A stretch of 60,050 nucleotides of DNA from Candidatus Jorgensenbacteria bacterium (GCA_043807585.1 JAZDFV010000006.1:1-60050); one strand, 5' to 3'; counted from the first letter of the stretch, positions 16,666-35,685 are shown. Numbers and translations: made by a program. The notes: a model not told the origin generated them from the letters alone.

Positions 16666-16745
16666 ACGGTCATTCTACCACCCCGCCATGACAAACCCCC
16701 ACACCTACGTTGGGTGCGGGGGTTGCCCTCATTCATCCGAACTGC

Positions 16746-18185: not shown

Positions 18186-18240
18186 AACACAAAATCGCAG
18201 CACATATGTACTGCGATTTTGATTTCCACCTTGTTCTACT

Positions 18241-18394: not shown

Positions 18395-18465
18395 GTGGAA
18401 AAAGCAACTCCGCCGCGGGAGGGTATTTTTTATTTTTAAAGGTTTTATTTTAGATTTACCTGACC

Positions 18466-18494
18466 TTGATTTTTTACTCAAAATAATGTAGTAT
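18466..18494 (+). promoter_or_regulatory. Sigma70 promoter of the AT-rich operon
   Basis: TTGATT-17 nt-TAGTAT, 9 nt before ATG 18504. Confidence 0.6.
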
Positions 18495-18503
18495 TTAAAA
18501 ACC

Positions 18504-19415: not shown

Positions 19416-20017
19416 CCATAGGCGACCTAAAAAGCTATGCATACTTATTTAAAAAGATTTTAACCATCCCTATCAGGGGAATAAACTTTTTAAGTTTTAA
19501 AAATGCACCGGATTTTGAAGGGAAATTTTTTCGCGTCACTTTTAAAAATAAAAACAAGTGTCTAAAACGCATAATTAAAAACGAGCATGCAGATATTATT
19601 TTGGATTTAGCAAATGTCGTCGTTGTTACCGTCCTGCTTGAAGAAAAAAATCTTACTCCAAATGTTTATTCAATTTATATAGATGCGCCATCAAATTATT
19701 TCGCGATATGCGTAGGTAAGGCTGAAGATATATTAATCAATACGGAAAAATATCGTTCAGGTTTTTCGCATTTTTCGTCATGCATCGCAGATTTAGCCGA
19801 AAAATGGAAAATCCGAAGACTCCCGTACGACGATTATCCTTATGACAATACATTTTTATTGGAAATCAAAAATAAAAGTAATCTGGGAATTTTTCTTGGA
19901 AAAATCGTATTATTAGATATTGATCCGAAGTGCTATTCAAATAATAAGTTAATAAAATTTGCAGCTCTAATCTTTAAAAATAGAATTTATCGTAATTTAA
20001 ATAAGTTTAAAAAATAG
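19412..20017 (+). CDS. Hypothetical protein, possibly kinase-like fold
   Basis: NLTPNVY and KSNLG..KIVLLDID loosely resemble kinase catalytic/Mg-binding loops; ATGA overlap with the GT gene. Confidence 0.5.
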   Translation: MTIGDLKSYAYLFKKILTIPIRGINFLSFKNAPDFEGKFFRVTFKNKNKCLKRIIKNEHADIILDLANVVVVTVLLEEKNLTPNVYSIYIDAPSNYFAICVGKAEDILINTEKYRSGFSHFSSCIADLAEKWKIRRLPYDDYPYDNTFLLEIKNKSNLGIFLGKIVLLDIDPKCYSNNKLIKFAALIFKNRIYRNLNKFKK

Positions 20018-20028
20018 AAGAAAAAACA

Positions 20029-20823
20029 ATGGGCCAAAATAAGAAAGTATTGAATATAACGCCCCTAACAAATAGGGTTGAATGCGGGAGCAAATTGGCG
20101 CTGGAATTATGCGAAACCATACATCTTCATTATAGGGATTTAAGAATTGAGATGGACGGAAAAACGTTGAAGATACTAACCGAATGCCTTAAAGACGGGG
20201 CGAATAAACACTTGTTAAATCCCAAATTAAGCGGAACCGACTTTTTAATGTTGAGCGATAAAAGGCTCGGAACAAATAAGATTAATAATGACAAACTTAA
20301 AGTCGAATTACTTAAAAACAATTTGATTCATATTCATTACAGGAATATACGTTTGGAATTAACTATTAGGAATTTTATAAAGTTATTCGACGGCCTCTCT
20401 AGGGCTTTTAATAAACTGATATTGGACGAATATATTTCTAATAAAAACGACGAATTTGAAGAAAAGTATATTGATATAGATAAAATTAACCCCTACGATA
20501 TTGTTCACAAGGAAGATTTGAATTCTCCCTATGGTTATACAAGCTGGAATGCTCAAGAGGTTTTAACGCATGAAAAGGGCATAAAAATTATCGCGAAGTT
20601 AATAAAAAATGGGCATAAATTATTGCCCGTATCAGTGATTCCGATCAGATCGAGGGGCAAACATTACAGTGGCCCCATCAAAAAGGGGCAGAAGTATCAG
20701 AGATTGGACGGCTTTAAAAGATACATTGCATGGAAAAGATTGGGTTATAAAAAAATGTTATGCCATGTTTACAAAAAGGCGAAACCGGGCAATCAAAGGT
20801 ATAAGCCGTTGGTTATCGGCTAA
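20029..20823 (+). CDS. Protein with duplicated IHLHYR/IHIHYR N-terminal unit and ParB/Srx-like C-terminal domain
   Basis: LELCETIHLHYRDLRIEM and VELLKNNLIHIHYRNIRLEL; KYQRLDGFKRYIAWKRLG matches the ParB-N DGxxR motif. Confidence 0.6.
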   Translation: MGQNKKVLNITPLTNRVECGSKLALELCETIHLHYRDLRIEMDGKTLKILTECLKDGANKHLLNPKLSGTDFLMLSDKRLGTNKINNDKLKVELLKNNLIHIHYRNIRLELTIRNFIKLFDGLSRAFNKLILDEYISNKNDEFEEKYIDIDKINPYDIVHKEDLNSPYGYTSWNAQEVLTHEKGIKIIAKLIKNGHKLLPVSVIPIRSRGKHYSGPIKKGQKYQRLDGFKRYIAWKRLGYKKMLCHVYKKAKPGNQRYKPLVIG

Positions 20824-20826
20824 AAT

Positions 20827-21612
20827 ATGGAACGTATGAGAAATAGGTCTAAAAAAACAATAATTATCACCGGAGCTGGCTCTGGAATAGGAAGGGCCAT
20901 AGCTATACGTTTGGCAAAAGACGGATATTCAATAGGATTAATCGGACGGCGGGCTGGTAACCTTAAGCAAACAGAAAAGATAATTAAAAAAATTACCCCT
21001 GACGTCATTTACAAAACAGCGGACGTAAGAAAAAAGGACCAAGTTTATAAAGCGGTTGAATATATCTCTTCTCATTTAGGTAAATTATCAGGCGCAGTTG
21101 CGGCCGCGGGAATCGGCGGTTCCAATAAGCCGACGAGGCACGATCGCTGGGACAATGTGATCAAAACCAATCTTTATGGCACGTATTATGCCTTATCGGC
21201 GGCAGTACAATACATGAAGAATGACAATGAACCGAAACAGCTGATATCAATAGCATCTCTTTTGGCGAGAATTGGAGTAAAAAATTATACGGCGTACTGC
21301 GCTTCAAAGTCGGGAATCCTGGGGCTTGTGAGAGCGCTTGCTATCGGACTGGCCGACAAAGGCATAAGAGTAAACGCCATAAGCCCGGGCTGGGTGGATA
21401 CAAAAATGGCAAAGAGAGGAATGAATAGGTTGGCTCGAATTAATAATTTGACCTACGAGAATGCGAGAAAAAACGCCCTAAACGCCGTTCCGTTAAAAAG
21501 AATGAGCTCCCCCGAAGAGATCGCCAACGTAGTATCTTTTCTGTTCGGAGAAGGAATTTCGGGATTCACGGGGCAAAATTTTGATATAAGTAATGGTTCA
21601 TGGATGGAATGA
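20827..21612 (+). CDS. SDR family NAD(P)-dependent oxidoreductase
   Basis: TGAGSGIG, YCASK, VNAISPGWVDT. Confidence 0.93.
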   Translation: MERMRNRSKKTIIITGAGSGIGRAIAIRLAKDGYSIGLIGRRAGNLKQTEKIIKKITPDVIYKTADVRKKDQVYKAVEYISSHLGKLSGAVAAAGIGGSNKPTRHDRWDNVIKTNLYGTYYALSAAVQYMKNDNEPKQLISIASLLARIGVKNYTAYCASKSGILGLVRALAIGLADKGIRVNAISPGWVDTKMAKRGMNRLARINNLTYENARKNALNAVPLKRMSSPEEIANVVSFLFGEGISGFTGQNFDISNGSWME

Positions 21613-21623
21613 TCAAGTAATAA

Positions 21624-22304
21624 ATGAAACACAATAGGCCGAAAATAAAAATCTGTTGCATAAAATCCAGGGAAGAACTGGCTACCGTTGTAAAATACGG
21701 GGTAGATTGCGTCGGATTCGTCTCAAAAATGCCGAGCGGGCCGGGTATTATTTCCGACAGGGAAATACGTGACATCGCAAAATATGCCCCTGAACACGTA
21801 GACACATTTTTATTGACGAGCCATTTAGACCCAAAAAAAATCATTGAGCAACAACAATTTTGCAAAACAAAAACAGTGCAGCTTTGTAATCCCTTAAAAA
21901 TCAACGACTTGAAGAAGTTGAAAGAGGCCCTTGTCGGCGTAAAGATTGTCGGAGTGACGCATGTTCTGAATGAAGAAAGTATCCAGAAAGCAGTGGAGTT
22001 ACAGGATTTTGTTGATGCCATACTATTGGATACGGGCAATCCCTGCGGGGCATCTCCCGAATTAGGAGGAACTGGTAGGACCCATAACTGGGATGTTTCA
22101 AAAAAAATATGCCAACACGTTACAAGCCCCGTATATCTTGCGGGTGGGTTAAATCATAAAAATGTTATTGCCGCGATAGAACACGTTGATCCCTACGGCA
22201 TAGATCTATGTTGCGGAGTGAGAACCAATGACAAATTAGACGAAAAAAAGCTACAACTGCTCTTAGGGGCCATAGAGGATTATTTTCACAAAAATACTGA
22301 ATAA
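21624..22304 (+). CDS. trpF: Phosphoribosylanthranilate isomerase (TrpF)-family protein
   Basis: KIKICCI, LLDT, LGGTGRTHNW, LAGGL..NV, PYGIDLCCGV; no other trp genes nearby. Confidence 0.85.
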   Translation: MKHNRPKIKICCIKSREELATVVKYGVDCVGFVSKMPSGPGIISDREIRDIAKYAPEHVDTFLLTSHLDPKKIIEQQQFCKTKTVQLCNPLKINDLKKLKEALVGVKIVGVTHVLNEESIQKAVELQDFVDAILLDTGNPCGASPELGGTGRTHNWDVSKKICQHVTSPVYLAGGLNHKNVIAAIEHVDPYGIDLCCGVRTNDKLDEKKLQLLLGAIEDYFHKNTE

Positions 22305-22720
22305 TGTTTATTCACAAAAACCGAATTACTGTCAGCACCGACGGCCAGGGATTGTACAAGATAACCGATCTCGTTCAAAAGAAAATTGAAGAGGTAAAAA
22401 TACCAAACGGGATATGTTATTTATTCGTTCCTCATACCAGTGCTAGCATCATCATACAAGAACTCGATCCTGCGGCAAAAAACGATATGGAATATTTTTT
22501 GGACAAACTGGTGCCCGAAAATGACGACAAGTACCGGCATCGAATGGAGGGACCCGACGACCCCTCCTCTCATGTTAAGGGTTCATTGTTAGGAAACTCT
22601 CAGATTGTTTTTATTGAAAATAACAAGCTATTGATGGGGTCTTGGCAAGAAATATATCTTTGGGAACATCGGCGCGACAAAAGAAATCGTGTAATTGATA
22701 TAAGAATTATCAGTGAATAA
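22304..22720 (+). CDS. yjbQ: YjbQ family protein (UPF0047)
   Basis: FVPHTSAS, YRHRMEGPDD..SHVKGSLLG, MGSWQEIYLWEHR. Confidence 0.9.
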   Translation: MFIHKNRITVSTDGQGLYKITDLVQKKIEEVKIPNGICYLFVPHTSASIIIQELDPAAKNDMEYFLDKLVPENDDKYRHRMEGPDDPSSHVKGSLLGNSQIVFIENNKLLMGSWQEIYLWEHRRDKRNRVIDIRIISE

Positions 22721-23579
22721 CGTGAAAAAGAACGAGGGAATATATTACTTAGATGATATCTCTTTAACGCCAAAGTTTCGTTTTCCGGAAACGATAGGCG
22801 TGAGAACCGAAGGATTACTGGGTGATAATATAATCGCAAGTACGGCTTTCCGCGGGCTTATCAATGCGCATAAAAAGCCGATCGTAATATTCTCCACATA
22901 CACCCACGATAAAGAAAGGGTTGGCTTATTGTCCGATTTGTATAGTGAACTTATATCTAAAAATGTAATAAAAGGGATAATACATTTTTCAAGACCGCAT
23001 GGCCCTATTACTGACGAACAGAGAAATTATTTATTAAGGATGGGGTGTCAAAAGGTGTACGATTGTGGTCCGTTTGAAAGTGAATTCAGGGGCCTTCAAA
23101 GAGGTGAACCGTTTCTTGGCGAAGAACTGGGAAAAGAATGGAAATCCCAAAAAAGAAAAAATAATACCATCGGTCTTTTCAGATGGTCTGGATTTCATAC
23201 ACATTATTTTTTACGAAACAGGCCGTACGAAGAATGGGAAATTATAGAAAAGTTTTTGGTCGAAAAAGGATTTGAATGTATTCTTTTTGGGTACGACGAT
23301 TTATTGCCAAATAAAAATGGATTCGCGGACTATCGGAAAAAACTGACGGTTTATGAGACGCTTAAAAAAATGGCTCAGTGTTCTTTGTTAATAAGCACTT
23401 CAAGCTTTCCTCCCTTGTTTTGTCAGTATTATATTCCCTGCCTTGTTCTCTCAGATCCGAGAGACATCGAAAATTTAAAAGAAAAATGGGAAGTTTCCAG
23501 TAACTATAAAATACTCGACGTTACAAAAAATTACATTAATCAGATTAGAACGGAATTGGATAATTTCTATAAAAAATGA
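22713..23579 (+). CDS. Glycosyltransferase family 9-like (heptosyltransferase fold) protein
   Basis: GLLGDNII; RNRPYEEW; DYRKKLTVYET..CSLLISTSSFP parallels the GT9 DSG.MH region. Confidence 0.6.
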   Translation: MNNVKKNEGIYYLDDISLTPKFRFPETIGVRTEGLLGDNIIASTAFRGLINAHKKPIVIFSTYTHDKERVGLLSDLYSELISKNVIKGIIHFSRPHGPITDEQRNYLLRMGCQKVYDCGPFESEFRGLQRGEPFLGEELGKEWKSQKRKNNTIGLFRWSGFHTHYFLRNRPYEEWEIIEKFLVEKGFECILFGYDDLLPNKNGFADYRKKLTVYETLKKMAQCSLLISTSSFPPLFCQYYIPCLVLSDPRDIENLKEKWEVSSNYKILDVTKNYINQIRTELDNFYKK

Positions 23580-23746
23580 ACTCTACCCGCACACCATTCC
23601 CCTATTCGCCAGCCTCGACTAGACGTCGAGTCTAGGCGGGCGCGCTTGCCCATCCGTAGTCCATCCGAAGCTTCAGCGTAGGAGGACGAAGGAGGGCTTG
23701 CCTCGCCGTAACCGGGTGAAGGCGGGAATTAGAGAAGGTAAATGAT

Positions 23747-24142
23747 TTATCGGTTCAGGAAAGTAATGGTGAGCTGGAGAACGGTGGCGAACGAAACCCA
23801 GAGCAGATACGGGATTTGGATGTAGGTGATCCAGTGCGCGTGGGGCCAGATGGCGACCATCGCCCAGATGAGCGTGCCGAGAACGAGGAGAATATCTATG
23901 GCGGCGAGGTAGTTGTTCTTCAATCCGAACTGGATAGGCGTGAAGGCGAGATTGAAAATGAGGTTCAGAACGAACGGCAGGGCAACCAAGAGCACAATTT
24001 CTTTCCGCCAAGCCATCACAAACACCTTGCCGAAAGAAACTACGATCAAAACGTAGAGGAACGTCCAGACCGGACCGAAGAGGTACGCCGGCGGCGACCA
24101 TGCGGGTTTTATGAGTTCCTGATAGGAAGTGAAGTTGTTCAT
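23747..24142 (-). CDS. tspO: TspO/MBR family tryptophan-rich protein
   Basis: YQELIKPAWSPP..FGPVWTFLY..QFGL..PYLLWVSFATVL. Confidence 0.92.
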   Translation of the reverse strand: MNNFTSYQELIKPAWSPPAYLFGPVWTFLYVLIVVSFGKVFVMAWRKEIVLLVALPFVLNLIFNLAFTPIQFGLKNNYLAAIDILLVLGTLIWAMVAIWPHAHWITYIQIPYLLWVSFATVLQLTITFLNR

Positions 24143-24403
24143 AAATTTACTTGCTTATATTCTACCACGGAAACGAAAACGGCCTGGCGGCGGGTAAACC
24201 ATCGGCTAATTCGTGCGCCTGCCCGCCCATGGCGGGAATTAGACCATAAGGAATCGGCTGCGGGACATTCCGACATTCTGCAGAATGTGAGAATGTCGTT
24301 AAAACAGCGGGGGCGGCGGGGTGCTTTAGTCAATTTTTCATCGGCATACGCCAAAATCCGGATAATTTGTCGGCATGCGGAAATAGGGACTATAATTTTA
24401 ATA

Positions 24404-25099
24404 ATGCCCGAACGGAAAGCGGTGAATACAATGGTGATCTCCGACGTTCATCTCGGCTCCGAGGTGAGCCGGCCGGAAGCGTTGCTCGCCACCCTGAAAA
24501 GCCATTCTTTCGGGCGCCTGATCCTCCTGGGCGATATTTTTGACGATCTCAACTTCAATCGTCTGTCGCGGGAACACTGGGAACTCCTCTCCTACATCCG
24601 CCTTCTCACCAACCGGAAAAGGAGGGTTGAGGTGATCTGGGTTGTGGGGAATCACGATGAGCTCCTGGTGGATATCATGAAGTATCTCATTGGCTCGGAT
24701 GTAAAAGAACACTTTTTCTGGAAGGAGGGCGGGCAAAAATTCTTCGCTATCCACGGCCATCAGTTTGACTACTTCCTTATTCGCAATCGTTTCTTAAGTA
24801 ATTTTGCCGCGTCCCTGTATAAAATTGTGCAGAGGCTGGACACGAAAAGGCAGCGCTTCAGCCGCTACATCAAGCGTGCCAGCAAAAGCTGGCTGAGGGC
24901 CTCGGAGGCCGTGGAGGAGGGCGCCGTGCGCAGGGGTGGGAAAATGGGCGCGGATTACGTCTTTTGCGGCCACACGCACAAGGCGCTCCATTCGACGCTT
25001 GGGAACATTGAATACTTCAACGCGGGTTGTTGGACCGACATTCCCTCAAGCTACGTCACCATCACGAACGGTATTCCGGAACTGCACCGGGTGAGTTAA
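24404..25099 (+). CDS. Calcineurin-like metallophosphoesterase (LpxH-like)
   Basis: SDVHLG, GDIFD, GNHD, HGHQFD, CGHTH, NAGCW; true start at 24404. Confidence 0.9.
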   Translation: MPERKAVNTMVISDVHLGSEVSRPEALLATLKSHSFGRLILLGDIFDDLNFNRLSREHWELLSYIRLLTNRKRRVEVIWVVGNHDELLVDIMKYLIGSDVKEHFFWKEGGQKFFAIHGHQFDYFLIRNRFLSNFAASLYKIVQRLDTKRQRFSRYIKRASKSWLRASEAVEEGAVRRGGKMGADYVFCGHTHKALHSTLGNIEYFNAGCWTDIPSSYVTITNGIPELHRVS

Positions 25100-25270
25100 C
25101 GACGACGCCCGTTCTATCCCAAAGCGCCGCGTGCGGAACTATCGGCTAATTCGTGCGCCTGCCCGGCCGTAGCCGGGCGAAGGAGGGAATTAGCCTATGG
25201 AACCATTCGCGCGAATTAGACCATGGAGGAACGACAACCGACGCGGGAGGGTAAGTAAATACACGCTAGA

Positions 25271-25300
25271 TTCGTATAGTAACATATGTTACTATACGAA
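25271..25300. promoter_or_regulatory. Perfect 30-bp palindrome, likely operator of the HTH-Doc operon
   Basis: ttcgtatagtaacat|atgttactatacgaa, ending 2 nt before ATG 25303. Confidence 0.7.
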
Positions 25301-25302
25301 AC

Positions 25303-25557
25303 ATGGGGAAAAACTTTTATTCCACTTCGGAGGCAGCGCGCATTTTGAAGCTGAGCCGCGTGGAGGTATTCAGAAAGATAAAGAGCGGTCGCATGAGAGC
25401 GGAGAAGGTGGGGCGAAATTACGTCATCCCCGCCGAAGCAGTTATGGAAGCACTCGGCAAAACCGTGGGCACAGCAAAACGGGAGGAAATCGGACGGAGC
25501 ATCAATAGAGCCTTGAAAGAATATGGCGATACGTTCAAGCGGCTTGCAAAAGAATGA
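25303..25557 (+). CDS. Excisionase-like HTH protein, putative antitoxin
   Basis: YSTSEAARILKLSR..IKSGRMRAEKVGRNYVI; C-terminal ALKEYGDTFKRLAKE. Confidence 0.8.
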   Translation: MGKNFYSTSEAARILKLSRVEVFRKIKSGRMRAEKVGRNYVIPAEAVMEALGKTVGTAKREEIGRSINRALKEYGDTFKRLAKE

Positions 25558-25979
25558 GGCCAAAGCGGCTCACGGTTGCGGAGGTTGAGTACACGGCGTT
25601 TGCGCTCGCCCGTAAACTTATGACATGGGATGAACCGATTCCTGAATTCGGCACGCGGTTCCCACACATACTCGAGAGCTGCCTCGAAACTCCGTTTGCA
25701 AGCTTCGGGAAAAGAGATCTCTACCGCGGGTTGGTTGAAAAAGCGAGCATCTTGTTCTATCTCCTCATTAAAAACCATCCGTTCCAGAATGGTAACAAAC
25801 GCATTGCGATTATGAGCTTACTCTATTTTCTTCACACGAACGGGAAGTGGCTTAAGATGGCGAACGATGTGCTCTATAGCTTTGCGAAGGGTGTCGCAAA
25901 AAGCCGACCCGTCTCGCGTGAGAAAACGATCCGTGCGATACAACACACCATTAAGAAATATCTGGTGGATGTTTCTTAA
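25554..25979 (+). CDS. doc: Doc/Fic family toxin
   Basis: HPFQNGNKR motif; ATGA overlap with the upstream gene. Confidence 0.88.
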   Translation: MRPKRLTVAEVEYTAFALARKLMTWDEPIPEFGTRFPHILESCLETPFASFGKRDLYRGLVEKASILFYLLIKNHPFQNGNKRIAIMSLLYFLHTNGKWLKMANDVLYSFAKGVAKSRPVSREKTIRAIQHTIKKYLVDVS

Positions 25980-26069
25980 TGCTTCTCACCAACCCGGCCG
26001 CGGGAGGGACGAAAAACGGGTGCTTTGTTTAAACAAAGCACCCGTTTCTATGATGATATCTGAAATCCC

Positions 26070-26432
26070 CTACACTCTCCGCTTGATCAACCGCTGCAAT
26101 CCTGGGCAATCCATAAGAATCGCCTTCCACGCCATGATGAAAGCGAGGATGGTAAAAGCAGTTCCCAAAATTGCGGCGGGGAGCGGCGCGTGGCCAAAGA
26201 GAATCGCGAAGAGGAGCCAGAAGGTGAAGAGCCATCCCCAATGGGTAAGGAGGACGAATCCTCCGAGCAACGCGAGAAAGGTGAACACAAGCGGTATCCG
26301 TGATATCGAGATGCGCAAACCAAGATCATGCACTATCACGAAGATAAGCGGGAGCGTTGCGTAGCCGATGACAAAGAGATAGATGAACTGCCACGGCTCT
26401 ATGGCAGGTTCGTAGTACATGCTGTAGTACAT
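26070..26432 (-). CDS. Multi-TM hypothetical protein
   Basis: 120-aa hydrophobic ORF. Confidence 0.55.
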   Translation of the reverse strand: MYYSMYYEPAIEPWQFIYLFVIGYATLPLIFVIVHDLGLRISISRIPLVFTFLALLGGFVLLTHWGWLFTFWLLFAILFGHAPLPAAILGTAFTILAFIMAWKAILMDCPGLQRLIKRRV

Positions 26433-26704
26433 ACATCACCTCGTATGTTGTGAGTGGATTTGCTGGATAAAGAATACCACGCGATATGGTATCCGTCAAC
26501 AGACAGGCAGCGGGCAGGTGGACTATCGGCTAATTCGTGCGCTTGCCTCGCTGTAGCCGGGCGAAGGAGGGAATTAGCCCATAAGGAATCAGCTGCGGGA
26601 CATTCCGACATTCTGCAGAATATGAGAATGTCGTTAAGATGGCTGGGGCGGAGGGGTGCTACAGTTAACTGTAGCACCCGGGGGGTGGTGGGAGGGTCGA
26701 TTGT

Positions 26705-26920
26705 TTAAACTTCCAATATTTTATTTTTTGAAGAAAAACCCGAAAGAAGGACAACCCGTGACGCCGGAATTTTAAAATATTCAGCCAATGCTTTAACAAT
26801 CGCCTCATTTGCCTTCCCTTTTTCCGGCGGTCCTTTTACCGACACGGAAAAATGCGTTTCATCGATCTTTTCCACTCTTTCTCCCTTTGCCCTTGGCTTT
26901 GCCTTAACGAAAATTTTCAT
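26705..26920 (-). CDS. DUF167/YggU family protein, copy 1
   Basis: VKAKPRAK..PPEKGKANEAIVKALAEYF..GFSSKNK. Confidence 0.9.
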   Translation of the reverse strand: MKIFVKAKPRAKGERVEKIDETHFSVSVKGPPEKGKANEAIVKALAEYFKIPASRVVLLSGFSSKNKILEV

Positions 26921-26925
26921 ACTAT

Positions 26926-27690
26926 TCATTTTTTAATGAATAGCGCGCCTGATTCGCTGAGTTTTATTGATAATTTCTCTCGAAGCGACTCTGGGAACGA
27001 TTCAAGCATAACCTTTTTCCCCATCTCTACCCTTTCGGTATCCAAGGGAATGCGTTGGATCTTTCGGAACCCTATCTTCTTAGCCATATCCGCCGTTTCC
27101 TCCGGGCTGATCATTTCTTTCTCCTCTGGGCCCATTATTTTCATTGAACCATCCAGGTAAGCGGTAATGTAGCCGTAGTTGTTGATGATGGTAAAAGCGC
27201 CTTTTCGCAGCACCCTGAAGACTTCCTTTAGGACATGGCTGCACTCATTGGGCTTAATAAAGATCTCTTTTCTCCCATCTCCCCCAAAGGAGGAGTTAAA
27301 GAGGTTGAGGATAAGACACCCCCCATCTACCGACTCGGTTTTGAACGGCAACTGAAAGGTGCTGGCGAGTACCGCTTCCCTACCCGCTTCTTGCTGCTTC
27401 CGCAGCGCCTCGGTAGCGACGTCAACCGCTACGATTTTCGCCCCCTTTCTCTCAAAAATTTGCGGTAGCTCGGAGGCCAGGGGAGCGAATCTTTTCTCCG
27501 GCGAGTCCGTGGCCGGGGGCGGGAAACCGGCCCCTATGTCGATAACGTTCTTGTCTTTGAGGTCAATGTCTTCCAGCAACTCCCCGTATTGCTCTGCACT
27601 GACAAAATCAAAATATTGCCTTGGCGACAATTCCATACTCTTGCCAAAACTTTCCCAATATTCTTTCCCTTCATGTTCAAATCTTTCCAT
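26926..27690 (-). CDS. Class I SAM-dependent methyltransferase
   Basis: VIDIGAG, VAVDV, LPFKTESVD, EVFRVLRKG. Confidence 0.8.
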   Translation of the reverse strand: MERFEHEGKEYWESFGKSMELSPRQYFDFVSAEQYGELLEDIDLKDKNVIDIGAGFPPPATDSPEKRFAPLASELPQIFERKGAKIVAVDVATEALRKQQEAGREAVLASTFQLPFKTESVDGGCLILNLFNSSFGGDGRKEIFIKPNECSHVLKEVFRVLRKGAFTIINNYGYITAYLDGSMKIMGPEEKEMISPEETADMAKKIGFRKIQRIPLDTERVEMGKKVMLESFPESLREKLSIKLSESGALFIKK

Positions 27691-27876
27691 AAATTTACTT
27701 GTAGTGAGCCCCGTCGAACTATTCTACCCCAAAACGCCGCGAATTGGAGGGTACTACACTATAGTGTAGTACCTTGGCGATGGTGGGAAGGTTGAGGGAA
27801 GAAGATAAGAGATGGTGAGAGCGGGGGCGGGTGGCCCTTCGACAGGCTCAGGATTAAATTTGCGGGTTATTTTTTT

Positions 27877-27946
27877 AAATTTACTTGCCCCGTAGTTATG
27901 CCGAAGGCATATACTAGCGGGGTTCTCCTAATTTTTTGTTGGCCGA
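27877..27946 (-). repeat. Cassette leader module (TCGGCCAACAAAAAATTAGGAGAATAAATTT) with a hairpin insertion and no gene behind it
   Basis: Same module at 28511-28564, 29722-29799 and 30402-30425. Confidence 0.85.
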
Positions 27947-27958
27947 GTTTGATTAACT

Positions 27959-28510
27959 TCATAACAGTTGATTAATTTTGCGGAAAATCTCAAGCATCTT
28001 ATCCCCAAGCAAAGTAGGTATAAATCGTTTTCTGTCTCTTTCAGAGATATTAAATAATCTTTCAAGCGACCATGCGTCAAATCTGATTGCCTTATCCTTC
28101 TCAATCTTCAGGTCTTCAATTCTGCCGTCATAACGATAAGCATAAACTGCTCTGATAACATTGTTAGTCATGCTAGTAACTTGATCAAAACCTTTACTTC
28201 TCATCATCTGAATAAAGGTAATGTTATCCTTTACTGCGCGTATTCCAGTCTCCTCTTCTAATTCCTGTAATGCGGCGCTTTCATAATCGGCTCCTATTTC
28301 TACGTGTCCTCCCACTGTCGCATCCAATAAGTCGGGGTAGGTATCTTTGTCTTTCCCGCGATGCTGAAAAATAATTTCACCCTTCGGCGTATAAAACCAA
28401 ACATGAATTTCACGGTGAAGGAGCCCCTTACGATGGATGTTCTCTCTTGTTTCCTCGCCGATTATATTACCGTTTTCGTCAACGACATTTAATTTCTCTA
28501 TATCGGGCAT
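27959..28510 (-). CDS. NUDIX hydrolase (IDI-like)
   Basis: HRKGLLHR; Nudix box GGHVEIGADYESAALQELEEETGI. Confidence 0.9.
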   Translation of the reverse strand: MPDIEKLNVVDENGNIIGEETRENIHRKGLLHREIHVWFYTPKGEIIFQHRGKDKDTYPDLLDATVGGHVEIGADYESAALQELEEETGIRAVKDNITFIQMMRSKGFDQVTSMTNNVIRAVYAYRYDGRIEDLKIEKDKAIRFDAWSLERLFNISERDRKRFIPTLLGDKMLEIFRKINQLL

Positions 28511-28741
28511 AAATTTATTCTCCTAATTTTTTGCTTGCCCCGAGCTTATCGAGGGGTTGGCCGATCCTTCTTATTCTACCATTCCCGCCAGAGGTGGGCA
28601 GGCACGCAAATTAGACCATAGAAATCGGTTGCGGGACATTCCGACATTCTGCAGAATGTGAGAATGTTATTAATAATGGCGGGGGTGGTGGGGTGCTTCG
28701 ATTAATCGAAGCACCCGGGGGGTGGTGGGAGGGTCGATCGT

Positions 28742-28957
28742 TTAAACTTCCAATATTTTATTTTTTGAAGAAAAACCCGAAAGAAGGACAACCCGTGACG
28801 CCGGAATTTTAAAATATTCAGCCAATGCTTTAACAATCGCCTCATTTGCCTTCCCTTTTTCCGGCGGTTCTTTTACCGACACGGTAAAATGCGTTTCATC
28901 GATCTTTTTCACTCCTTCTCCTTTTGCCCTTGGCCTTGCCTTAACAAAAATTTTCAT
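28742..28957 (-). CDS. DUF167/YggU family protein, copy 2
   Basis: Near-identical to 26705-26920. Confidence 0.9.
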   Translation of the reverse strand: MKIFVKARPRAKGEGVKKIDETHFTVSVKEPPEKGKANEAIVKALAEYFKIPASRVVLLSGFSSKNKILEV

Positions 28958-28974
28958 ATCCGGGGCGCGGCGGG

Positions 28975-29721
28975 TTATTTTTTAATTTTCGTCATCCGGC
29001 CCTCGAACCATTGATCGAGGAGCAAATCCACGTCTTGCCGTCTCCTCCATTGCGCCGCCATTCGCTTTACCATCGCTTCAATCTCCGCATAGGATCGCCC
29101 ACCGTACCGGAATAGCCGCCGGTAGGGAGCCCATTGCTCCATGGCCGTGTTGAACGCCTCGGAAACTTTCCATACATAATCGTTCGGTTTGCCGGGGATT
29201 TTAGAATGTTTGCGCAATCCGTACCGCTCCCCGATATAGTCAAAGAACATGAAGTGGAGGAGCTCGTGAGCGATGATCTTGTTCGCGTAGCACGGCAGTT
29301 TGTGTGCATACGGAAAAAAGAACGTTTTCTCCGACACGTCTCTCGGAAACATCCAAAACACCGAAGCGAATCCCTTATATCGCCCTTTCGGCCAGGGATG
29401 TTTCTTGAAAATGCGGTCAACGAGGCGGAAATACCGTTTCTCCACGCTGGCCCAGTGCGTTCGAGCTTGCGCCACTCCCCTTTTTATTTCTCGGGAGCGT
29501 TCCTTATGGATCCGCCGCGCGTATGCCTTTATCAGGCGATCCCGTTTCTTGGCCGAGATTCTTTCCATCACCACGGGGAGGATTTCGGTCGGGTAGAATT
29601 TTCTACGAAGAGTACGGGATCTCCCGAGCCGCCTGAACTTCAAAAAATTGACGCCAATTTCGGCGTCTCTCGCGGGACTTATCACTAGCTTCACTTTCGG
29701 ATAGACCGCCCCTTTGTTCAT
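28975..29721 (-). CDS. Hypothetical protein with HExxH motif
   Basis: IIAHELLHFMF..VSEAFN. Confidence 0.7.
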   Translation of the reverse strand: MNKGAVYPKVKLVISPARDAEIGVNFLKFRRLGRSRTLRRKFYPTEILPVVMERISAKKRDRLIKAYARRIHKERSREIKRGVAQARTHWASVEKRYFRLVDRIFKKHPWPKGRYKGFASVFWMFPRDVSEKTFFFPYAHKLPCYANKIIAHELLHFMFFDYIGERYGLRKHSKIPGKPNDYVWKVSEAFNTAMEQWAPYRRLFRYGGRSYAEIEAMVKRMAAQWRRRQDVDLLLDQWFEGRMTKIKK

Positions 29722-29756
29722 AAATTTACTTGTAGTGAGTTTATCGAACTATTCGC

Positions 29757-30401
29757 CTAATCTGTGGTGAGCCCTGTCGAACCATTTTTTGTTGGCCGAT
29801 TATTTATATCCTCGTCCTTCTTCCATTGGTTAAATGCTCTCTCAACCTCTTTTTTTTCACCTTCCGACATCTGTTGAAAAATTAAAGGTTCGCCCGAATC
29901 TCTTTTGGTCATTGTTTCAAAATAATCTACAAGAATCTTTCGCTTTCCTTCCTTTGTTTTTAAATCTAAGCCCTCATATTTCAATCCATCTATACGGCCA
30001 TGACTAATATCATTTCTTAAATCCTTAATTTTATGAAATAGTTTAACGTGGCTATTGGTACCAAACATATCTTCATAAATTTTTATTCTATCACCAAAAT
30101 AAACTGTTATCGGATCATAATCTGAATCATCGGGGTCAATTTTTGCTATATCTACACCATGTTTTTCTTTTATAATTTTAATCGCTTTTTCATTGGAAGG
30201 ACCATATTTCTTCGCCATTTTCCATGCCTCACAAAGCACTTGATCAAGGTCGTGCTCCGTCATAAAACTAAGCCAAAAAACGAAAGAAACCGCATCGGCT
30301 TGCTCTTTATCAAGATGAAGTGCAGCATCAGAAATTATTCTTGCAAGTTCTTCATTGCTCGCACTGTTGATTTTTTGTTTTAGCAATTCAAATGAGTCCA
30401 T
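29757..30401 (-). CDS. Putative HEPN-like protein
   Basis: FGDRIKIY..IKDLRNDISHG contains the Rx4H HEPN-type motif; helical. Confidence 0.55.
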   Translation of the reverse strand: MDSFELLKQKINSASNEELARIISDAALHLDKEQADAVSFVFWLSFMTEHDLDQVLCEAWKMAKKYGPSNEKAIKIIKEKHGVDIAKIDPDDSDYDPITVYFGDRIKIYEDMFGTNSHVKLFHKIKDLRNDISHGRIDGLKYEGLDLKTKEGKRKILVDYFETMTKRDSGEPLIFQQMSEGEKKEVERAFNQWKKDEDINNRPTKNGSTGLTTD

Positions 30402-30444
30402 ATTCTCCTAATTTTTTGTTGGCCAAGTAGGTGGTCACGTCTAT

Positions 30445-31179
30445 TTATTTTCTTAGTTTTTTAAATTGGTTTTTAGTATTGTGAAGCCTAATTGATACAA
30501 AAGAAGAAATCTTTGAGGCGGCATCGAAAAACAGTGTTGTTACACCCATTAGAAGAACAGCAAGAATATTAACCCACCAAGTCGGCTGTAAATTGAAAAT
30601 CGAAATCGCCAAAAAATAGGAGGCTAAAACGAACAGAAATAATGCTAACTCTCCTGAATAATCCATAGGTTTATAGAATCTCAATTTCCTATCTTCTTTT
30701 AACTGCTCGTTATCTTTTTTTATTTTTTGTGCGCCAGGCAACGCCGCAATGTTTGTAATAAAATCTTTGACAGCAACGGTGTAATCACTAATCCCCATCC
30801 CATTTCCAATTTCTACGAACCGTTCATCTATAAAACTTACCTTTCCATCTAAAATGGAATTGTAGTCGTCTTGCATTTTTTGTAACCCATTAGATTCTTT
30901 GTCTAGGGTTTCACGAACTACCAGGAGACAAAAAACGATAACTGCTATATTTAAAATCACTCCAATAACAAAGTAGCTATTCTGGGGAGTTTTAACTAGT
31001 GAGGATAAACCTAAAACGGCCCCCGATAAAATCGTTACGTGTTTAAAGAATTCCCATCTCTGTTCTGCAAGTTTTAGGCGGACTTCATTGAAACCCTTAT
31101 TTATCTCACCTCTTAAACTAGTAGTTTCGTCTCTTTCCTTAATTAAGAAATCTATAAATTTTTGCTGCTCCGTATCCAT
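30445..31179 (-). CDS. Membrane protein (2 TM, coiled coil, 2 TM)
   Basis: Hydrophobic pairs flanking a charged helical region; AT-rich. Confidence 0.75.
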   Translation of the reverse strand: MDTEQQKFIDFLIKERDETTSLRGEINKGFNEVRLKLAEQRWEFFKHVTILSGAVLGLSSLVKTPQNSYFVIGVILNIAVIVFCLLVVRETLDKESNGLQKMQDDYNSILDGKVSFIDERFVEIGNGMGISDYTVAVKDFITNIAALPGAQKIKKDNEQLKEDRKLRFYKPMDYSGELALFLFVLASYFLAISIFNLQPTWWVNILAVLLMGVTTLFFDAASKISSFVSIRLHNTKNQFKKLRK

Positions 31180-31227
31180 ATTTTTCAGTCGTTTGTTTTC
31201 ACCAACAGCTATTCACGGATTAATTTT

Positions 31228-31740
31228 TTACACTTCTTTCACAATCGGAAGGATAACCCCTAAATCGTACACATCCAACTTGCCGTCACGGTTCAAATCA
31301 CTTTTATCTAGCGTTCCTTGGCGTTCATGGATTTCGTAAACCGTCTTCAAATACTTACCAAGCACGATACGGGGAACTTTGTACTTGTTTTCCAAACCGA
31401 GCCACTCAAAAGGATCTCTACCGCCCTTTTTACTATTACACGTCCGGCATGCCCATACCTGGTTATCTATGGCATTCATTGCAAGCTTAACTTGCGGGAT
31501 TATATGGTCCCAGGCAAGGTCATTCCTTGAGCCGCAATAGGCGCAACATTTTTCTCCTTCGCACTGCAGTTTATTTTCCCGCAAAATATCCGACGGGTGC
31601 AATTGGCCCTTTTTCAACTTCTGGAAGGTATACATGATGAACGGATAGTTCTTTCTATCACCTACCGCACTCCCAGAAATGAGTTTAGCGTACTCCCAAT
31701 AGATCAGATCGCGGATAGTTTTTACGGCAGGAGGGGGCAT
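31228..31740 (-). CDS. HNH endonuclease
   Basis: CAYCG..DHIIP..NQVWACRTCNSKKG; C-terminal DLNRDGKLDVYD EF-hand-like loop. Confidence 0.88.
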   Translation of the reverse strand: MPPPAVKTIRDLIYWEYAKLISGSAVGDRKNYPFIMYTFQKLKKGQLHPSDILRENKLQCEGEKCCAYCGSRNDLAWDHIIPQVKLAMNAIDNQVWACRTCNSKKGGRDPFEWLGLENKYKVPRIVLGKYLKTVYEIHERQGTLDKSDLNRDGKLDVYDLGVILPIVKEV

Positions 31741-31748
31741 AGTTGAGT

Positions 31749-33317
31749 TTAGATAGACATGATGAATCTCCCTAGGTCTGTATCCTTGATCTCATCAAAA
31801 TTTGTCTCTTGCGCGATGCGCCAATTTTCTTCCTTTACCCACTGCACAGTAGAATCCAGTACGGCGTAAGGTGCTAACAGTGGACAACCCTCACCCTTTA
31901 TTTTCTTGACTGCTCGTTCAGGAAAATAATTTTCAATAGCTCTTAATTCCGAAGCATGAACTTTAATTTTTAATCTCTCACAAATACTGAGAAAGCTGAT
32001 CCGATTCCGCGGCAAAGAGGCAGTTTTGGAATTCTTTTCGCTATCTATCCAACAAAATATTTTTGGTGTTATTCTCTTTATCTCTGCTAATTCTTGTGCT
32101 CGTCTTCCATTAATCATCCCGTCGCCGCCTAGAGGAAGTATAACGAAGTCCTTATCCTTACCTTTCTTCCTTAAAAATTGCTGAAAAGTCTTCACTTCAG
32201 TTGGACCTTCAACAAGTAAGATTTTTTCGACGCCCAACTCTTGATACGCAGAAAAACCTAATTCTCCGAGCAATTCTGCGTAGTTCGGCGTCCATTCAAG
32301 TAATCTAACAACGCTGGAATTACCATCTTTTGTCACTGAATAAATGCGATCACCCATCGATCTAGCAAGTCCTAAAGAATGGGTAGCAAACAAAACACCT
32401 TCCTCACAGTAGGATGCGAGGCTCATAAGAAACTTCTGCTGTAGCGCCGAGTGAAGATTTTCCTCTGGTTCATCAATTAATATAAATGAAGGACTTGCTA
32501 AACCCACTGATGCGAGCACAAGAACAAAGTGTGTTATCCCCGAGCCTACCTCAGGCAATTTGTAGACCTGCCCATTAATCACTAACTTCAAAGTCTTCAG
32601 CTGCGGTGAAGCGTTGATTTCCAAACTACTATATCCGAACAATTTTCTAATATGCTCGGTAATATCTTGGATTTTTTGACTCTGCCAGGCATAAGGACCA
32701 ACTTTCCACTGGTGCCACGTATCGATAAATGCGCTTCCGACACTAATATCAAAATATTTACCCTCGGCACCAATATTTATAGCGTTTCGAAACGAAGGAA
32801 TGTAAATGCACTTTGCTAGCGCATTCAAGAGATTCAACAAATATGAGATATCAGCTTGCCCAGAAAATGTAGGACCAGAATAGTTCAAAACCTTACTACT
32901 AAAACTAACACTCGCGTTGCCTATAGGCACCTCTTGATCCTTTATAGAGATTTTAAAATCTCCGATGTTGGCATTAGAAGCATCTCGCTTGGAAATTGCG
33001 AAACTCAATTTTATTTCTCCTATTCTTAATTCAATTTGAATATTTCTTTTGGAAAATTTATAGAAAACTTCTTCTTTATCCACGATGCCTGTAAAGTCCA
33101 CACCGAAAGTTACTCCACCTAACAAACGATTAAGGTTATCTTGATTCAAGAGAAAATTCCAAATCGCACGGAATTCGTAGAAAAATTTAAGGACAAATGA
33201 CTTCCCGGAGTTGTTGGGGCCTATAAAGGCCGTGAAACCATCCCTAAGAACAAGCTCTAAGGGATGTTCATCACTGAAACAACGATAATTTTTGACCGTA
33301 AATTTTGCGTCAATCAT
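31749..33317 (-). CDS. OLD-like ABC ATPase-TOPRIM nuclease
   Basis: GPNNSGKS, GSG, LIDEPEENLH, ATHS, LLVEGPTE and WIDSE (TOPRIM), AIENYF. Confidence 0.85.
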   Translation of the reverse strand: MIDAKFTVKNYRCFSDEHPLELVLRDGFTAFIGPNNSGKSFVLKFFYEFRAIWNFLLNQDNLNRLLGGVTFGVDFTGIVDKEEVFYKFSKRNIQIELRIGEIKLSFAISKRDASNANIGDFKISIKDQEVPIGNASVSFSSKVLNYSGPTFSGQADISYLLNLLNALAKCIYIPSFRNAINIGAEGKYFDISVGSAFIDTWHQWKVGPYAWQSQKIQDITEHIRKLFGYSSLEINASPQLKTLKLVINGQVYKLPEVGSGITHFVLVLASVGLASPSFILIDEPEENLHSALQQKFLMSLASYCEEGVLFATHSLGLARSMGDRIYSVTKDGNSSVVRLLEWTPNYAELLGELGFSAYQELGVEKILLVEGPTEVKTFQQFLRKKGKDKDFVILPLGGDGMINGRRAQELAEIKRITPKIFCWIDSEKNSKTASLPRNRISFLSICERLKIKVHASELRAIENYFPERAVKKIKGEGCPLLAPYAVLDSTVQWVKEENWRIAQETNFDEIKDTDLGRFIMSI

Positions 33318-33459
33318 AAAACCTATTCCTTATATCTTCTAAAAAGTAATGAGCCGGGTATACACCCGGCTTGGAAGTCAAACGGCTTTCAGTCAGGGTT
33401 TTGTCCCCTTTTCACAATTACTATAGTACCAGTGGCACGAAAGACAACTGTGGATAACT

Positions 33460-33516
33460 TTCGGTTTTCTTTCGGGTCAATTTGGTATAATTATAGCACA
33501 CCGAAAGTAAACCGAA
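33460..33516. promoter_or_regulatory. Two opposed TTCGG-N6-TTCGG boxes flanking a TGgTATAAT -10 element (candidate LexA operator)
   Basis: ttcgg-ttttct-ttcgg at 33460-33475; ccgaa-agtaaa-ccgaa at 33501-33516; TATAAT at 33486-33491. Confidence 0.8.
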
Positions 33517-33519
33517 ACT

Positions 33520-34944
33520 ATGCTTACTGAAAAGAAAAAAGACGTACTGAATTTTGTGACAAGATACTCGCGAAAGCACGGCTACTCCCCTTCTATTCCG
33601 GAGATAGCTAAAGGTATTAAGCGAGCAGTTGGAACTGTTCATGAACACCTCCAAAAATTAGAGAATGAAGGGTATATCCGATTGAGCAAAAATCAACGGA
33701 GAGGGATAGAGATATTGGAAGCCATTGCTATGGTTCAGATTCCTATACGCGGTACCATTTCTGCGGGCCAACCGCTTACATTGTTTGAAGAACATACAGA
33801 AACAATTGCGGTGCCGGCAGCCAGAATTCCCCAGTCGGGCGATGTATACGCACTCCGCGTTCAGGGCGAAAGCATGATTGAAGAAAACATCAACGATGGA
33901 GATATTATTCTCGTGAAACAACAGGCAGTCGCGGAGAACGGGCAAAAAGTAGTCGCGCTTATAGACAATTACGACACAACTATCAAGAAATTTTATAACG
34001 AACGTGGCCAGATACGTTTACAACCGGCCAACAAAACGATGGCGCCTATTATTATCAAAAAGGGAGAGCGGGAATTTGTGATACAGGGTATTGCGCTAGA
34101 TGTCATCCGCGAGAGTACGGTCGCTCGTGAAAGAGTTTTGCCAAATAAACCATTAAAAGTGGCGAGTAGAAGAAATACCGCACCTTACTTCGAAGCAAAA
34201 AGCGTTTCGATTTACAGAGATGGCCTTTTGAAAATAACGTCTATTCCAAATAATTCTGTTGATTTGATCGTTACCTCTCCCCCCTACAACGTAGACATTC
34301 ACTACAATTCTCACAATGACAATTTAACCTATGGAGAATATTTGGAATTTACCCACCAGTGGATTAAAAAATGCTACGAGTTAGCGAAAGACGACGGTCG
34401 CTTCTGTTTGAATATACCACTCGACAAAAACAAAGGTGGACAGCAATCAGTTGGCGCTGATATTACGAAAATTGCAAAAGAAGTTGGCTGGAAATATCAC
34501 TCAACAATCATCTGGAACGAAGGGAATATATCGCGTCGCACAGCTTGGGGTTCTTTTATGTCGGCCTCTGCTCCGTATGTCATAGCGCCGGTTGAGTTGA
34601 TTTTAATTCTATACAAAAACAGCTGGAAAAAAATGAGTGGTAGCAGAGAAAATGATATTTCTAGAAAAGAATTTATGGATTGGACAAATGGCGTCTGGAC
34701 ATTTAATGGACAGAGTAAGAAAGGAGCCGGGGGGCACCCTGCGCCGTTTCCTATCGAGCTTCCCAAGCGATGCGTTAAGTTATTCAGCTTTGTTGGCAAC
34801 ACGGTGCTGGATCCATTTCTAGGCAGCGGATCAACGCTTATTGCTACCCAGCTTTTTAATAGAAATGGTGTGGGTGTTGAAATTGACAAAAAATACTGCG
34901 ATATCGCAATAGAGAGGCTAAAAAAAGAGACAAATTTGACCTAG
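33520..34944 (+). CDS. lexA: LexA repressor fused to an N4/N6 DNA methyltransferase
   Basis: LTEKK..GYSPSIPEIA wHTH; ISAG cleavage site; GESM and TIKK catalytic Ser/Lys; TSPPY, HPAPFP, LDPFLGSGST. Confidence 0.93.
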   Translation: MLTEKKKDVLNFVTRYSRKHGYSPSIPEIAKGIKRAVGTVHEHLQKLENEGYIRLSKNQRRGIEILEAIAMVQIPIRGTISAGQPLTLFEEHTETIAVPAARIPQSGDVYALRVQGESMIEENINDGDIILVKQQAVAENGQKVVALIDNYDTTIKKFYNERGQIRLQPANKTMAPIIIKKGEREFVIQGIALDVIRESTVARERVLPNKPLKVASRRNTAPYFEAKSVSIYRDGLLKITSIPNNSVDLIVTSPPYNVDIHYNSHNDNLTYGEYLEFTHQWIKKCYELAKDDGRFCLNIPLDKNKGGQQSVGADITKIAKEVGWKYHSTIIWNEGNISRRTAWGSFMSASAPYVIAPVELILILYKNSWKKMSGSRENDISRKEFMDWTNGVWTFNGQSKKGAGGHPAPFPIELPKRCVKLFSFVGNTVLDPFLGSGSTLIATQLFNRNGVGVEIDKKYCDIAIERLKKETNLT

Positions 34945-34969
34945 GACAAGCTGCCTTAGGTTGGCAGGT

Positions 34970-35557: not shown

Positions 35558-35685
35558 TCTTATATAAATCCTACCCCTACCCCACCCTAAAGGCAAAACA
35601 GGCGTTAGGCATTAGGCGCTAGACGTTAGAAAAAGAAGCCCCTCGACGGTTCGATGAGCTCGTTATAAGACACTATCACAACACC

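Follow-up and report, generated by a model that had tools for sequence, protein, structure and literature searches.

Why should unrelated genes in a groundwater bacterium with a very small genome each be preceded by the same short sequence? This question is raised by a contig of a member of Candidatus Jorgensenbacteria (GCA_043807585.1, JAZDFV010000006.1:1-60050). The 60,050 nucleotides (nt) analyzed here, referred to as the window, make up the 60-kb contig C6 in its entirety; the genome (G000) measures 769 kb and comprises 15 contigs. A preliminary description of the window had noted a leader of ~30 nt in front of genes for a NUDIX hydrolase, a protein with an HExxH motif, and a HEPN-like protein, and had proposed an integron-like array in which genes are captured or shuffled as cassettes by recombination at AGAATAAATTT-ATG. 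Bacteria of the candidate phyla radiation (CPR) have very small genomes, few recognizable mobile elements, and no cultured genetics, and the turnover of their accessory and anti-phage genes is largely obscure. Our analysis partly supports the proposal, in that cassette exchange is supported and the integron label is not. We consider it moderately probable that the repeat represents what decay has left, at this locus, of a cassette junction that occurs in various Patescibacteria (CPR) and whose units are exchanged by recombination between junction copies.

The junction and its likeness to hsdS gene starts

Using pattern searches of the window and the whole genome, in which up to one mismatch was allowed for CGGCCAACAAAAAAT and up to two for AAAAATTAGGAGAAT, we found the repeat four times, always on the minus strand of C6 at 27.9-30.4 kb, and with no copy elsewhere on C6 or on the other 14 contigs. 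The left half, CGGCCAACAAAAAAT, has three matches in the whole genome; AAAAATTAGGAGAAT has three matches in the locus and three weak look-alikes on C1, C2, and C12; and dinucleotide shuffles gave an expectation of zero matches. The right-hand 10-mer TAAATTTATG occurs 12 times in the genome, including 4 occurrences at the locus. These searches confirm the leaders reported before the NUDIX (28510), HExxH (29721), and HEPN-like (30401) genes and at 27877-27946, and, with no copies outside the locus, they exclude that the module is a 5′ untranslated region (UTR) common to housekeeping genes throughout the genome.

All four copies lie on the minus strand and differ in their integrity. In copy A (30399-30426), TTGGCCAACAAAAAATTAGGAGAAT stands immediately before the start codon of the HEPN-like gene (ATG, 30399-30401), which the letters TGGCCAACAAAAAATTAGGAGAAT at 30402-30425 abut; this copy is uninterrupted and lacks AAATTT. 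Copy B (29719-29798), which precedes the HExxH gene, falls into five pieces: CGGCCAACAAAAAAT (29784-29798), a 23-nt mini-repeat (29761-29783), TTAGGCGAAT (29751-29760), a 22-nt mini-repeat (29729-29750), and TAAATTTATG (29719-29728). Copy C (28508-28580) is located behind a −10 box before the NUDIX gene and comprises GGTAGAAT (28573-28580), CGGCCAAC (28556-28563), a 22-nt mini-repeat (28534-28555), and CAAAAAATTAGGAGAATAAATTTATG (28508-28533). Copy D (27862-27945) has no gene behind it and is made up of CGGCCAACAAAAAATTAGGAGAA (27923-27945), a 39-nt mini-repeat that forms a hairpin (27884-27922; z −2.84), and TAAATTT (27877-27883), from which it continues directly into AAAAAAATAACCCGC, a motif that ends genes elsewhere; copy D is probably an emptied cassette site. 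Only copy A and the left part of copy D are contiguous. The description of one leader module thus needs correction in that B, C, and D are split by inserts and A lacks AAATTT. As had been noted for three copies, the distance to the previous stop codon is short (19 nt for A and 13 nt for D) or the copy overlaps the preceding gene (B, inside the HEPN-like open reading frame [ORF]). The local array is a decayed relic and not visibly active: it contains inserts, one start codon is missing, and no gene follows one of the copies. A separate motif, AAATT(T)AAAAAATAACCCGC, supplies or follows the stop codons of several genes (27862-27883, 28970-28990, C5:6522, and C5:7594) and is fused directly to the TAAATTT of copy D; a similar sequence, AAATTTAAAATAAAC, follows junctions in the loci L040, L041, and L068 from other sources.

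An intact junction has the form (ATG, 1-3 codons) TGG CCA ACA AAA AA(A) TTA GGA GAA, followed by TAA ATTT ATG, and the full motif can be written as (ATG-1-3 codons-)TGGCCAAC-A6/7-TTAGGAGAA-TAAATTT-ATG. The left part is the opening ten codons of hsdS (M-x-W-P-T-K-K-L-G-E), the specificity gene of type I restriction-modification systems, as found in CPR bacteria, and the right part is a stop-ATTT-start junction by which the next ORF comes to lie 9 nt behind AGGAG. An in-frame ATG is present one to four codons upstream of TGG in 23 of the 37 unique copies, compared with 1 and 0 copies in the other two frames. Copies with seven A's encode M-x-WPTKKLGE... in frame and form the starts of Pfam-confirmed Methylase_S proteins; in L031 (Methylase_S, 4.8e-52) and L074 (2.2e-50), the proteins begin with MTW(L/P)(T/I)KKLGE and the Pfam match extends from residue 2. 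L075 encodes a half-size HsdS, and in the hsdS gene of L068 a 39-nt mini-repeat lies within the A-run and keeps the reading frame. Copies with six A's are frameshifted and contain a mini-ORF of 7-8 codons, M-x-WPTKN, with the stop codon TAG. The seven-A form stands both at hsdS starts and, with TAAATTTATG after it, before unrelated genes, and only a subset of the hsdS genes of the order has the junction-type start. The module is not a novel capture site; it is the 5′ end of hsdS genes. We had considered the mini-ORF MxWPTKN* as a regulatory leader peptide and dropped this idea because the seven-A forms are hsdS starts. In G000 itself, tblastn detected neither hsdS nor hsdM, and there were zero matches to PF01420. 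The right part is enriched: TAAATTTATG occurs 30 times in 168 kb of nonredundant loci, compared with a mean of 2.2 for permuted 10-mers, with 22 of the 30 occurrences behind a junction and 8 directly after the stop codon of another gene (e.g., L064).

Cassette units in different genomes and neighborhoods

Among 40 relatives, two contain the motif, namely G001, from the same genus, with two copies 490 nt apart, and G007, from another genus, with three copies. A scan of one genome per species yielded 12 loci, of which ~9 are genuine as judged by context; by the depositors' labels of the metagenome-assembled genome (MAG) records, these belong to Candidatus Jorgensenbacteria (two), Giovannonibacteria, and Saccharibacteria (three loci in two MAGs), and three are on oddly labeled MAG contigs. 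A metagenome scan added 46 loci, ~41 of them genuine by the same judgment, on contigs of low guanine-plus-cytosine (GC) content. Based on a profile search of the fetched DNA that included diverged copies, at least two copies are present in 19 of 62 sources and always on one strand, with four copies in 3.8 kb in L027. A scan of viral contigs gave three loci, all one coding look-alike, and phage and plasmid collections gave only partial matches with E values of 0.1 or worse. On other CPR contigs (L009:2795-2841, L038, L033, L051, L085, and L077), units terminate in a second, related junction type (...CCAAAAAGTCGAAAAATTAATTGAGAAATAAATTTATG), which can stand in tandem with the hsdS-type junction; in G000, we found no clear copy of it and one marginal match on C9. 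Full-text literature searches, from which subscription-only literature was out of scope, returned no description of cassette arrays of this kind in CPR bacteria.

The search for the module in the genome and in CPR MAGs that the preliminary description had suggested, with tabulation of the downstream genes, revealed that the motif recurs before many different genes. After removal of duplicates, 28 distinct ORFs from other sources start within 60 nt behind it. Twelve of these match a Pfam family: NYN (three times), PD-(D/E)XK, PIF1 helicase, DUF4145, GIY-YIG (weakly), MazG, NOV_C, DUF559/MTES_1575, TPR, and DUF3795. The genes behind the motif are mostly of nuclease or defense type and are arranged in same-strand arrays. 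Restriction and defense genes are also numerous among 103 further ORFs in the 2-kb flanks, and include HsdS, HsdM, Mrr, DpnI, TdeIII, Eco57I/TaqI_C, SMODS+SLATT, AbiV, AAA_15, HD, PIN, and SNase; one of these ORFs matches a reverse transcriptase.

Two units can be followed between genomes. The first is the HEPN-like gene of the window (29757-30401, minus strand), which encodes a 214-amino-acid (aa) protein with an RNDISH motif and has a GC content of 0.35; the protein has no Pfam family match and a weak PADLOC match to CARF_HEPN (E 8e-4). From junction A to junction B, this unit is 86% identical at the DNA level to the metagenome contig L028, in which the flanks are unrelated, and its protein is 83% identical to that encoded by L028:2824-3417. 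Compared with L028, the G000 gene has a 1-nt deletion near its 3′ end that removes the TAA stop codon, and therefore the ORF reads on through junction B and its mini-repeat. The second is a NYN unit, for which L009, L037, and L038 gave identities of 98.3, 98.0, and 99.0% over 825-848 bp in unrelated flanks. The NYN homology sets in at the 5′ edge of the junction, no more than a few bases from TGGCC, and stops inside the junction that follows. Units are also found inserted between junction copies: in L031, the order is hsdM, two inserted genes, a six-A junction, a gene for a 224-aa protein, and an hsdS gene that starts with the junction sequence, and in G007 it is junction, ArsR-palindrome unit, junction, helicase. 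Judged by such sequence comparisons, single-gene units between same-strand junction copies occur in different genomes and in unrelated neighborhoods and comprise many, mostly defense-type, genes.

The other two cargo genes of the window, both on the minus strand, encode a 248-aa HExxH protein (28975-29721; GC 0.52) and a 183-aa NUDIX hydrolase (27959-28510; GC 0.40; Pfam NUDIX E 3.5e-12). In the congener G001, the HExxH homolog (~53% aa identity) has its own promoter in place of the module. The statement that the cargo differs in GC content and function is borne out by GC values of 0.35, 0.52, 0.40, and 0.49 and by different Pfam families. Gene content also differs between the congeners. The two junction copies in G001 are followed by genes different from those in G000, and the G001 array adjoins genes whose G000 counterparts are on C15; at the matching place on C15, G000 has a gene for a methylase-Mrr fusion, a DUF3800 gene, and no junction. 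The gene content at matching places in the two genomes is therefore not the same, and the two flanks of the G000 island that holds the array map to different G001 contigs. A gene order and content fixed among relatives, which would count against cassettes, is thus not what we observed. The proposal of gene capture or shuffling as cassettes accordingly stands as far as units recur in unrelated contexts (HEPN-like and NYN) and 28 ORFs share the motif; the crossover point at AGAATAAATTT-ATG is conjectural, and no recombinase could be tied to the module.

Proposed exchange between junction copies and its alternatives

How could such units move? Our best guess for the mechanism is recombination between junction copies, by which units would be inserted, lost, and exchanged. 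In one route, a unit that is circular or has been taken up would integrate by one crossover and then lie between two copies; in another, two crossovers would occur, one in each of two flanking copies. Either general recombination functions or a recombinase encoded elsewhere would carry this out, and the junction would provide each newcomer with translation start signals. If the L031 arrangement is taken as the origin, the original landing pad would have been the hsdM-hsdS boundary of type I operons. In the genome studied here, the hsd genes would have been lost, with four worn copies left, of which three are invaded by mini-repeats and one is empty.

A true site-specific cassette system appears rather unlikely to us. 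In such a system, a recombinase encoded elsewhere would recognize the junction, which contains an 8-bp palindrome (TTGGCCAA) and AAATTT, also palindromic, and the junction would be the functional counterpart of attI/attC or of Xer-dependent modules. The junction is precise and conserved across distant CPR lineages, inserts lie between two copies in G007 and L031, the arrays are always in direct orientation, and copy D looks cleanly emptied, all of which such a system would explain. Its candidate enzymes are a large serine recombinase encoded near the window end (58412-59566; Resolvase, Recombinase, and Zn_ribbon_recom domains) and the single housekeeping Xer-like tyrosine recombinase. A gene for the latter is present once in every genome examined and is the only recombinase gene common to all, though it is expected of any bacterium. 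However, no integrase, resolvase, or transposase family was found between 16 and 39.5 kb of the window or among the 103 ORFs of the 2-kb flanks. Of five other genomes with junctions, G481, which is 99% complete and has two junction copies, has no serine recombinase gene; in the rest, the closest such gene is at a distance of 31 kb (G532 C4) and the others are on other contigs. A check for a co-occurring recombinase, as had been suggested, thus found none linked to the junction. The sole PF00589 match in G000 is on contig C1, and the earlier observation that no tyrosine integrase is in view holds for the island; the large serine recombinase had not been mentioned. The junction also lacks the structure of a site: by inspection we found no paired arms around a spacer, four uninterrupted junction copies tested for an attC-like fold folded no better than shuffles (z +0.96, +0.45, −0.35, and −0.46), and the only hairpin is in the secondary 39-nt insert of copy D. 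A quick search of the draft genome gave no canonical dif-like site for comparison, and the GAAT-to-ATG spacing varies among copies (0, 3, 6, 8, and 16 nt), which speaks against a single fixed cut. Because no recombinase is linked to the junction, serine recombinases are unlinked or absent in five genomes, and the junction has neither fold nor paired arms, we favor general recombination. The absence of an attC-like fold and of a tyrosine integrase in the island also agrees with the previous exclusion of a classical integron, from a proposal whose cassette part is partly supported.

We judge it distinctly unlikely that the junction is an expression element only, i.e., a strong translation start and coupling region derived from hsdS that moves along with genes or is kept by selection, with the arrays arising by ordinary horizontal transfer and operon building and without a role of the junction in recombination. 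The AGGAG 9 nt before the ATG and the stop/restart TAA-ATTT-ATG fit this explanation, as do the 8 of 30 cases in which TAAATTTATG joins genes without the left part and the location of the module in L035/L064 and copy C, where it follows a −10 box in the position of a 5′ UTR. Yet it leaves unexplained why 28 unrelated genes should be headed by one and the same stretch of 30-40 nt, part of which is a frameshifted gene fragment without evident use, why homology breaks exactly at the junction edges, and why inserts are bracketed by two copies; moreover, the supposed Shine-Dalgarno sequence varies (GGAG, GGCG, GAAG, GGGG, and GACG). That a purely local tandem or segmental duplication copied one leader before neighboring genes is highly improbable, for although a 329-bp segment is doubled within the locus at 93% identity and the leaders of forms B and E share 21 identical bases, the same junction precedes other genes in other genera and classes and the HEPN-like unit occurs with both junctions in L028.

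Several observations weigh against exchange by recombination between junction copies. The motif is sporadic and rare in binned genomes: in a phylum-wide sample, the six-A form is present in 0 of 400 other genomes, and within the order, 8 of 120 other genomes contain the seven-A form, a count that includes look-alikes. Most loci were found with a pattern that fixes the core, and the conservation of the core is therefore partly imposed by the search; the junction being highly conserved, the crossover point cannot be read from comparisons. Thirty to forty bases are short for RecA-type recombination. We observed no recombination joints or circles in the one public sequencing run that was found, which holds 8% of the sampled words in scattered pieces of 40-240 nt and is too thin for this purpose. 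The local copies are degenerate (CGG for TGG, no ATG, inserts), and the local array may be inert. Finally, the window does encode a large serine recombinase, 27 kb from the array.

A bolder extension, which we regard as possible and on balance doubtful, is that the type I restriction operons of CPR bacteria are an integron-like platform. The hsdS start would be the docking site for single defense genes, which would be expressed by operon coupling, stacked, and exchanged across Patescibacteria classes with no need for a cassette-linked recombinase, and the window would be a relic that has outlived its hsd genes. If true, gene capture would here be built from a gene start and not from a folded attC site, and the hsdS start would exemplify a gene fragment reused as a docking and expression signal. 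The wider junction family, more than the worn local array, is the point of interest. Being conserved and searchable, the junction would list the mobile defense gene pool of CPR bacteria directly from metagenomes; the many small uncharacterized genes behind it are candidate defense genes, and the junction itself is a concrete potential substrate for cassette exchange that is recombinase-free or uses a recombinase acting in trans.

Our preferred working model for junction exchange is provided by the PeSL cassettes of T4-type phages. As described by Arbiol et al. (2010, PMC2839356), short repeated expression signals between nonessential genes are recombination substrates there, and recombination between them shuffles, deletes, and circularizes single-gene modules without a dedicated recombinase. 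The insertion and replacement patterns observed here fit this model, with no joints or circles in the one very thin read run. A PeSL is a phage sequence that combines a promoter with a terminator stem-loop, whereas the junction, which is located in bacterial chromosomes, combines the fragment of a gene start with a restart signal and has no stem-loop. In phase-variable hsdS loci, inverted repeats swap hsdS halves, usually with a recombinase nearby. Here, by contrast, all copies are in direct orientation, the cargo has no relation to hsdS, and the genome lacks hsdS and hsdM. What is shared is that the repeated element is the conserved start of hsdS and that recombination at hsdS repeats is established, type I restriction-modification loci with multiple hsdS genes being reported to switch through recombination between repeats that lie within hsdS (Atack et al. 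2020, PMC7394358).

The arrays resemble integrons in that they are rows of single, unrelated ORFs in the same orientation, each bounded by a short conserved site, with units found in different genomes and in different company and with one site here that looks empty; single, mostly promoterless ORFs in one orientation that are shared between arrays, a trait of integrons, are found here as well. Unlike in integrons, there is no IntI or other tyrosine recombinase near the array, the site is an unstructured hsdS fragment 5′ of the ORF and not an imperfect palindrome, and some units have their own promoters, with copy C and form E following a −10 box. Other systems offer partial parallels: Rhs and contact-dependent inhibition (CDI) toxin loci have arrays of orphan modules formed by displacement, Acinetobacter plasmids have Xer-dependent "dif modules," and foreign genes (prrC and the rlo genes) are lodged inside type I hsd operons. 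As in these, unrelated units here carry what is left of one conserved sequence at their front or have short flanking sites without a recombinase of their own, and defense genes are nested between hsd genes. The conserved piece, however, is ~30 nt of a gene start and not the coding region of a toxin tip as in Rhs/CDI loci, and in contrast to dif modules, an Xer-type 11-6-11 site was not recognized, with no dif found in the draft genome for comparison.

Promoters, mini-repeats, and the accessory island

The genes for a methyltransferase and TspO had been described as starting with a promoter-type variant of the module. The −10 box before them, GGTAGAAT, occurs 32 times in the genome, compared with 11 times for a reversed-word control. 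An ORF starts 3-40 nt downstream in 14 of the 32 cases, with a peak at 6-8 nt, and 5-9 nt downstream in 7 of the 32 (e.g., at 16672-16679, 17620-17627, and 59570-59577 of the window). This pattern identifies GGTAGAAT as the usual −10 box of the organism, frequently with leaderless starts, and suggests that −10-only promoters and many leaderless mRNAs may be present. Form E (27688-27728, minus strand) consists of GGTAGAAT, a 23-nt mini-repeat, and TAAATTTATG before the methyltransferase gene and has only the 10-mer TAAATTTATG and the mini-repeat in common with the junction. Form F (24140-24166, minus strand) consists of GGTAGAAT, ATAAGCAAG, and TAAATTTATG before tspO. Because GGTAGAAT is the usual −10 box, what these forms share with the junction reduces to TAAATTTATG and one mini-repeat; they are ordinary −10 promoters and not variants of the module. 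A generic scan, which has no model of the organism's −10-only promoters, gave 9 promoter-like sites, compared with 15.6 expected, and 13 terminator-like sites, compared with 11.5 expected.

The inserts of 22-39 nt belong to a family of mini-repeats scattered over the genome, with 18 places within five mismatches of one member (CCTTCGATAAACTCAGGGCAAG). Members in the window are located at 27884-27922, 28534-28555, 29729-29750, 29761-29783, and 27698-27720, and others are on C1, C2, C4, C9, C10, and C15. Members are repeatedly found within the junction's A-run or next to it; one interrupts an hsdS gene in frame in L068/L052, and in L037 and L051 they occupy one fixed point of the second junction type. 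L035/L064 carry the promoter and module of copy C without the insert, and the mini-repeats are therefore secondary. A literature search with spurious peptide translations of the mini-repeats returned no paper. At the contig end (55713-60036), three genes in a row encode an 897-aa ResIII helicase with a TnsA-like end (55713-58406), the 384-aa large serine recombinase (58412-59566), and a 150-aa IS200-like Y1 transposase (59584-60036), the last behind a GGTAGAAT box. By analogy with transposases associated with repetitive extragenic palindromes (REP), the Y1 enzyme is a candidate mobilizer of the mini-repeats.

The array lies in a low-GC accessory island at ~18.2-35.6 kb (18200-35600), with a GC content of 0.31-0.55 compared with 0.58-0.66 in the flanks. 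On the minus strand, the genes are, in order, those for an AAA_15/AAA_21 ATPase (31749-33317), an HNH nuclease (31228-31740), and a 244-aa membrane protein (30445-31179), all three low in GC and defense-like; the HEPN-like and HExxH proteins; a DUF167 protein (28742-28957); the NUDIX hydrolase; the 254-aa methyltransferase (26926-27690); a second DUF167 protein (26705-26929); and, further down, TspO (23747-24142). The ATPase and HNH pair (31228-33317) has PADLOC matches to several ATPase-nuclease defense families (NsnB, AriA, AbiL, and PtuA/PtuB). Upstream of the array is another HNH gene (34970-35596), which is on the opposite strand in the gene account and on the minus strand in the coordinate listing. 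Divergent from the array, on the plus strand, is a gene (33520-34944) in which LexA (DNA-binding domain plus S24 peptidase) is fused to an N6/N4 DNA methylase. Such fusions also lie beside junction arrays at L015:2324-3886, L021:8190-9713 (G001), and L066:2470-3894, and thus next to arrays in four independent loci, and the protein might regulate the array in response to damage or phage.

No tRNA gene was found in the window, and a reading of the junction as a tRNA-end attachment site was rejected for this reason. A gene pair for an HTH antitoxin-like protein and a Fic/DOC protein inside the island (25303-25979, plus strand) is also found next to junction copies in the metagenome locus L064:552-1230 (~49% aa and 69% nt identity). 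The 329-bp duplication (26594-26921 versus 28630-28958; 93% identity) comprises the DUF167 gene, a terminator hairpin, and a palindrome, and its two copies sit after different genes, for the methyltransferase and the HExxH protein, whose leaders share 21 identical nt. The palindrome belongs to a family with the core GACATTCTGCAGAATGTC, which is present in the island at 24264-24300, 26599-26635, 28635-28667, and 18272-18309, on C5 and C15, and in L022, L032, L015, L039, and L040. In other genomes, a small ArsR-like gene with palindromes on both sides is inserted in the junction directly after GAATAA.

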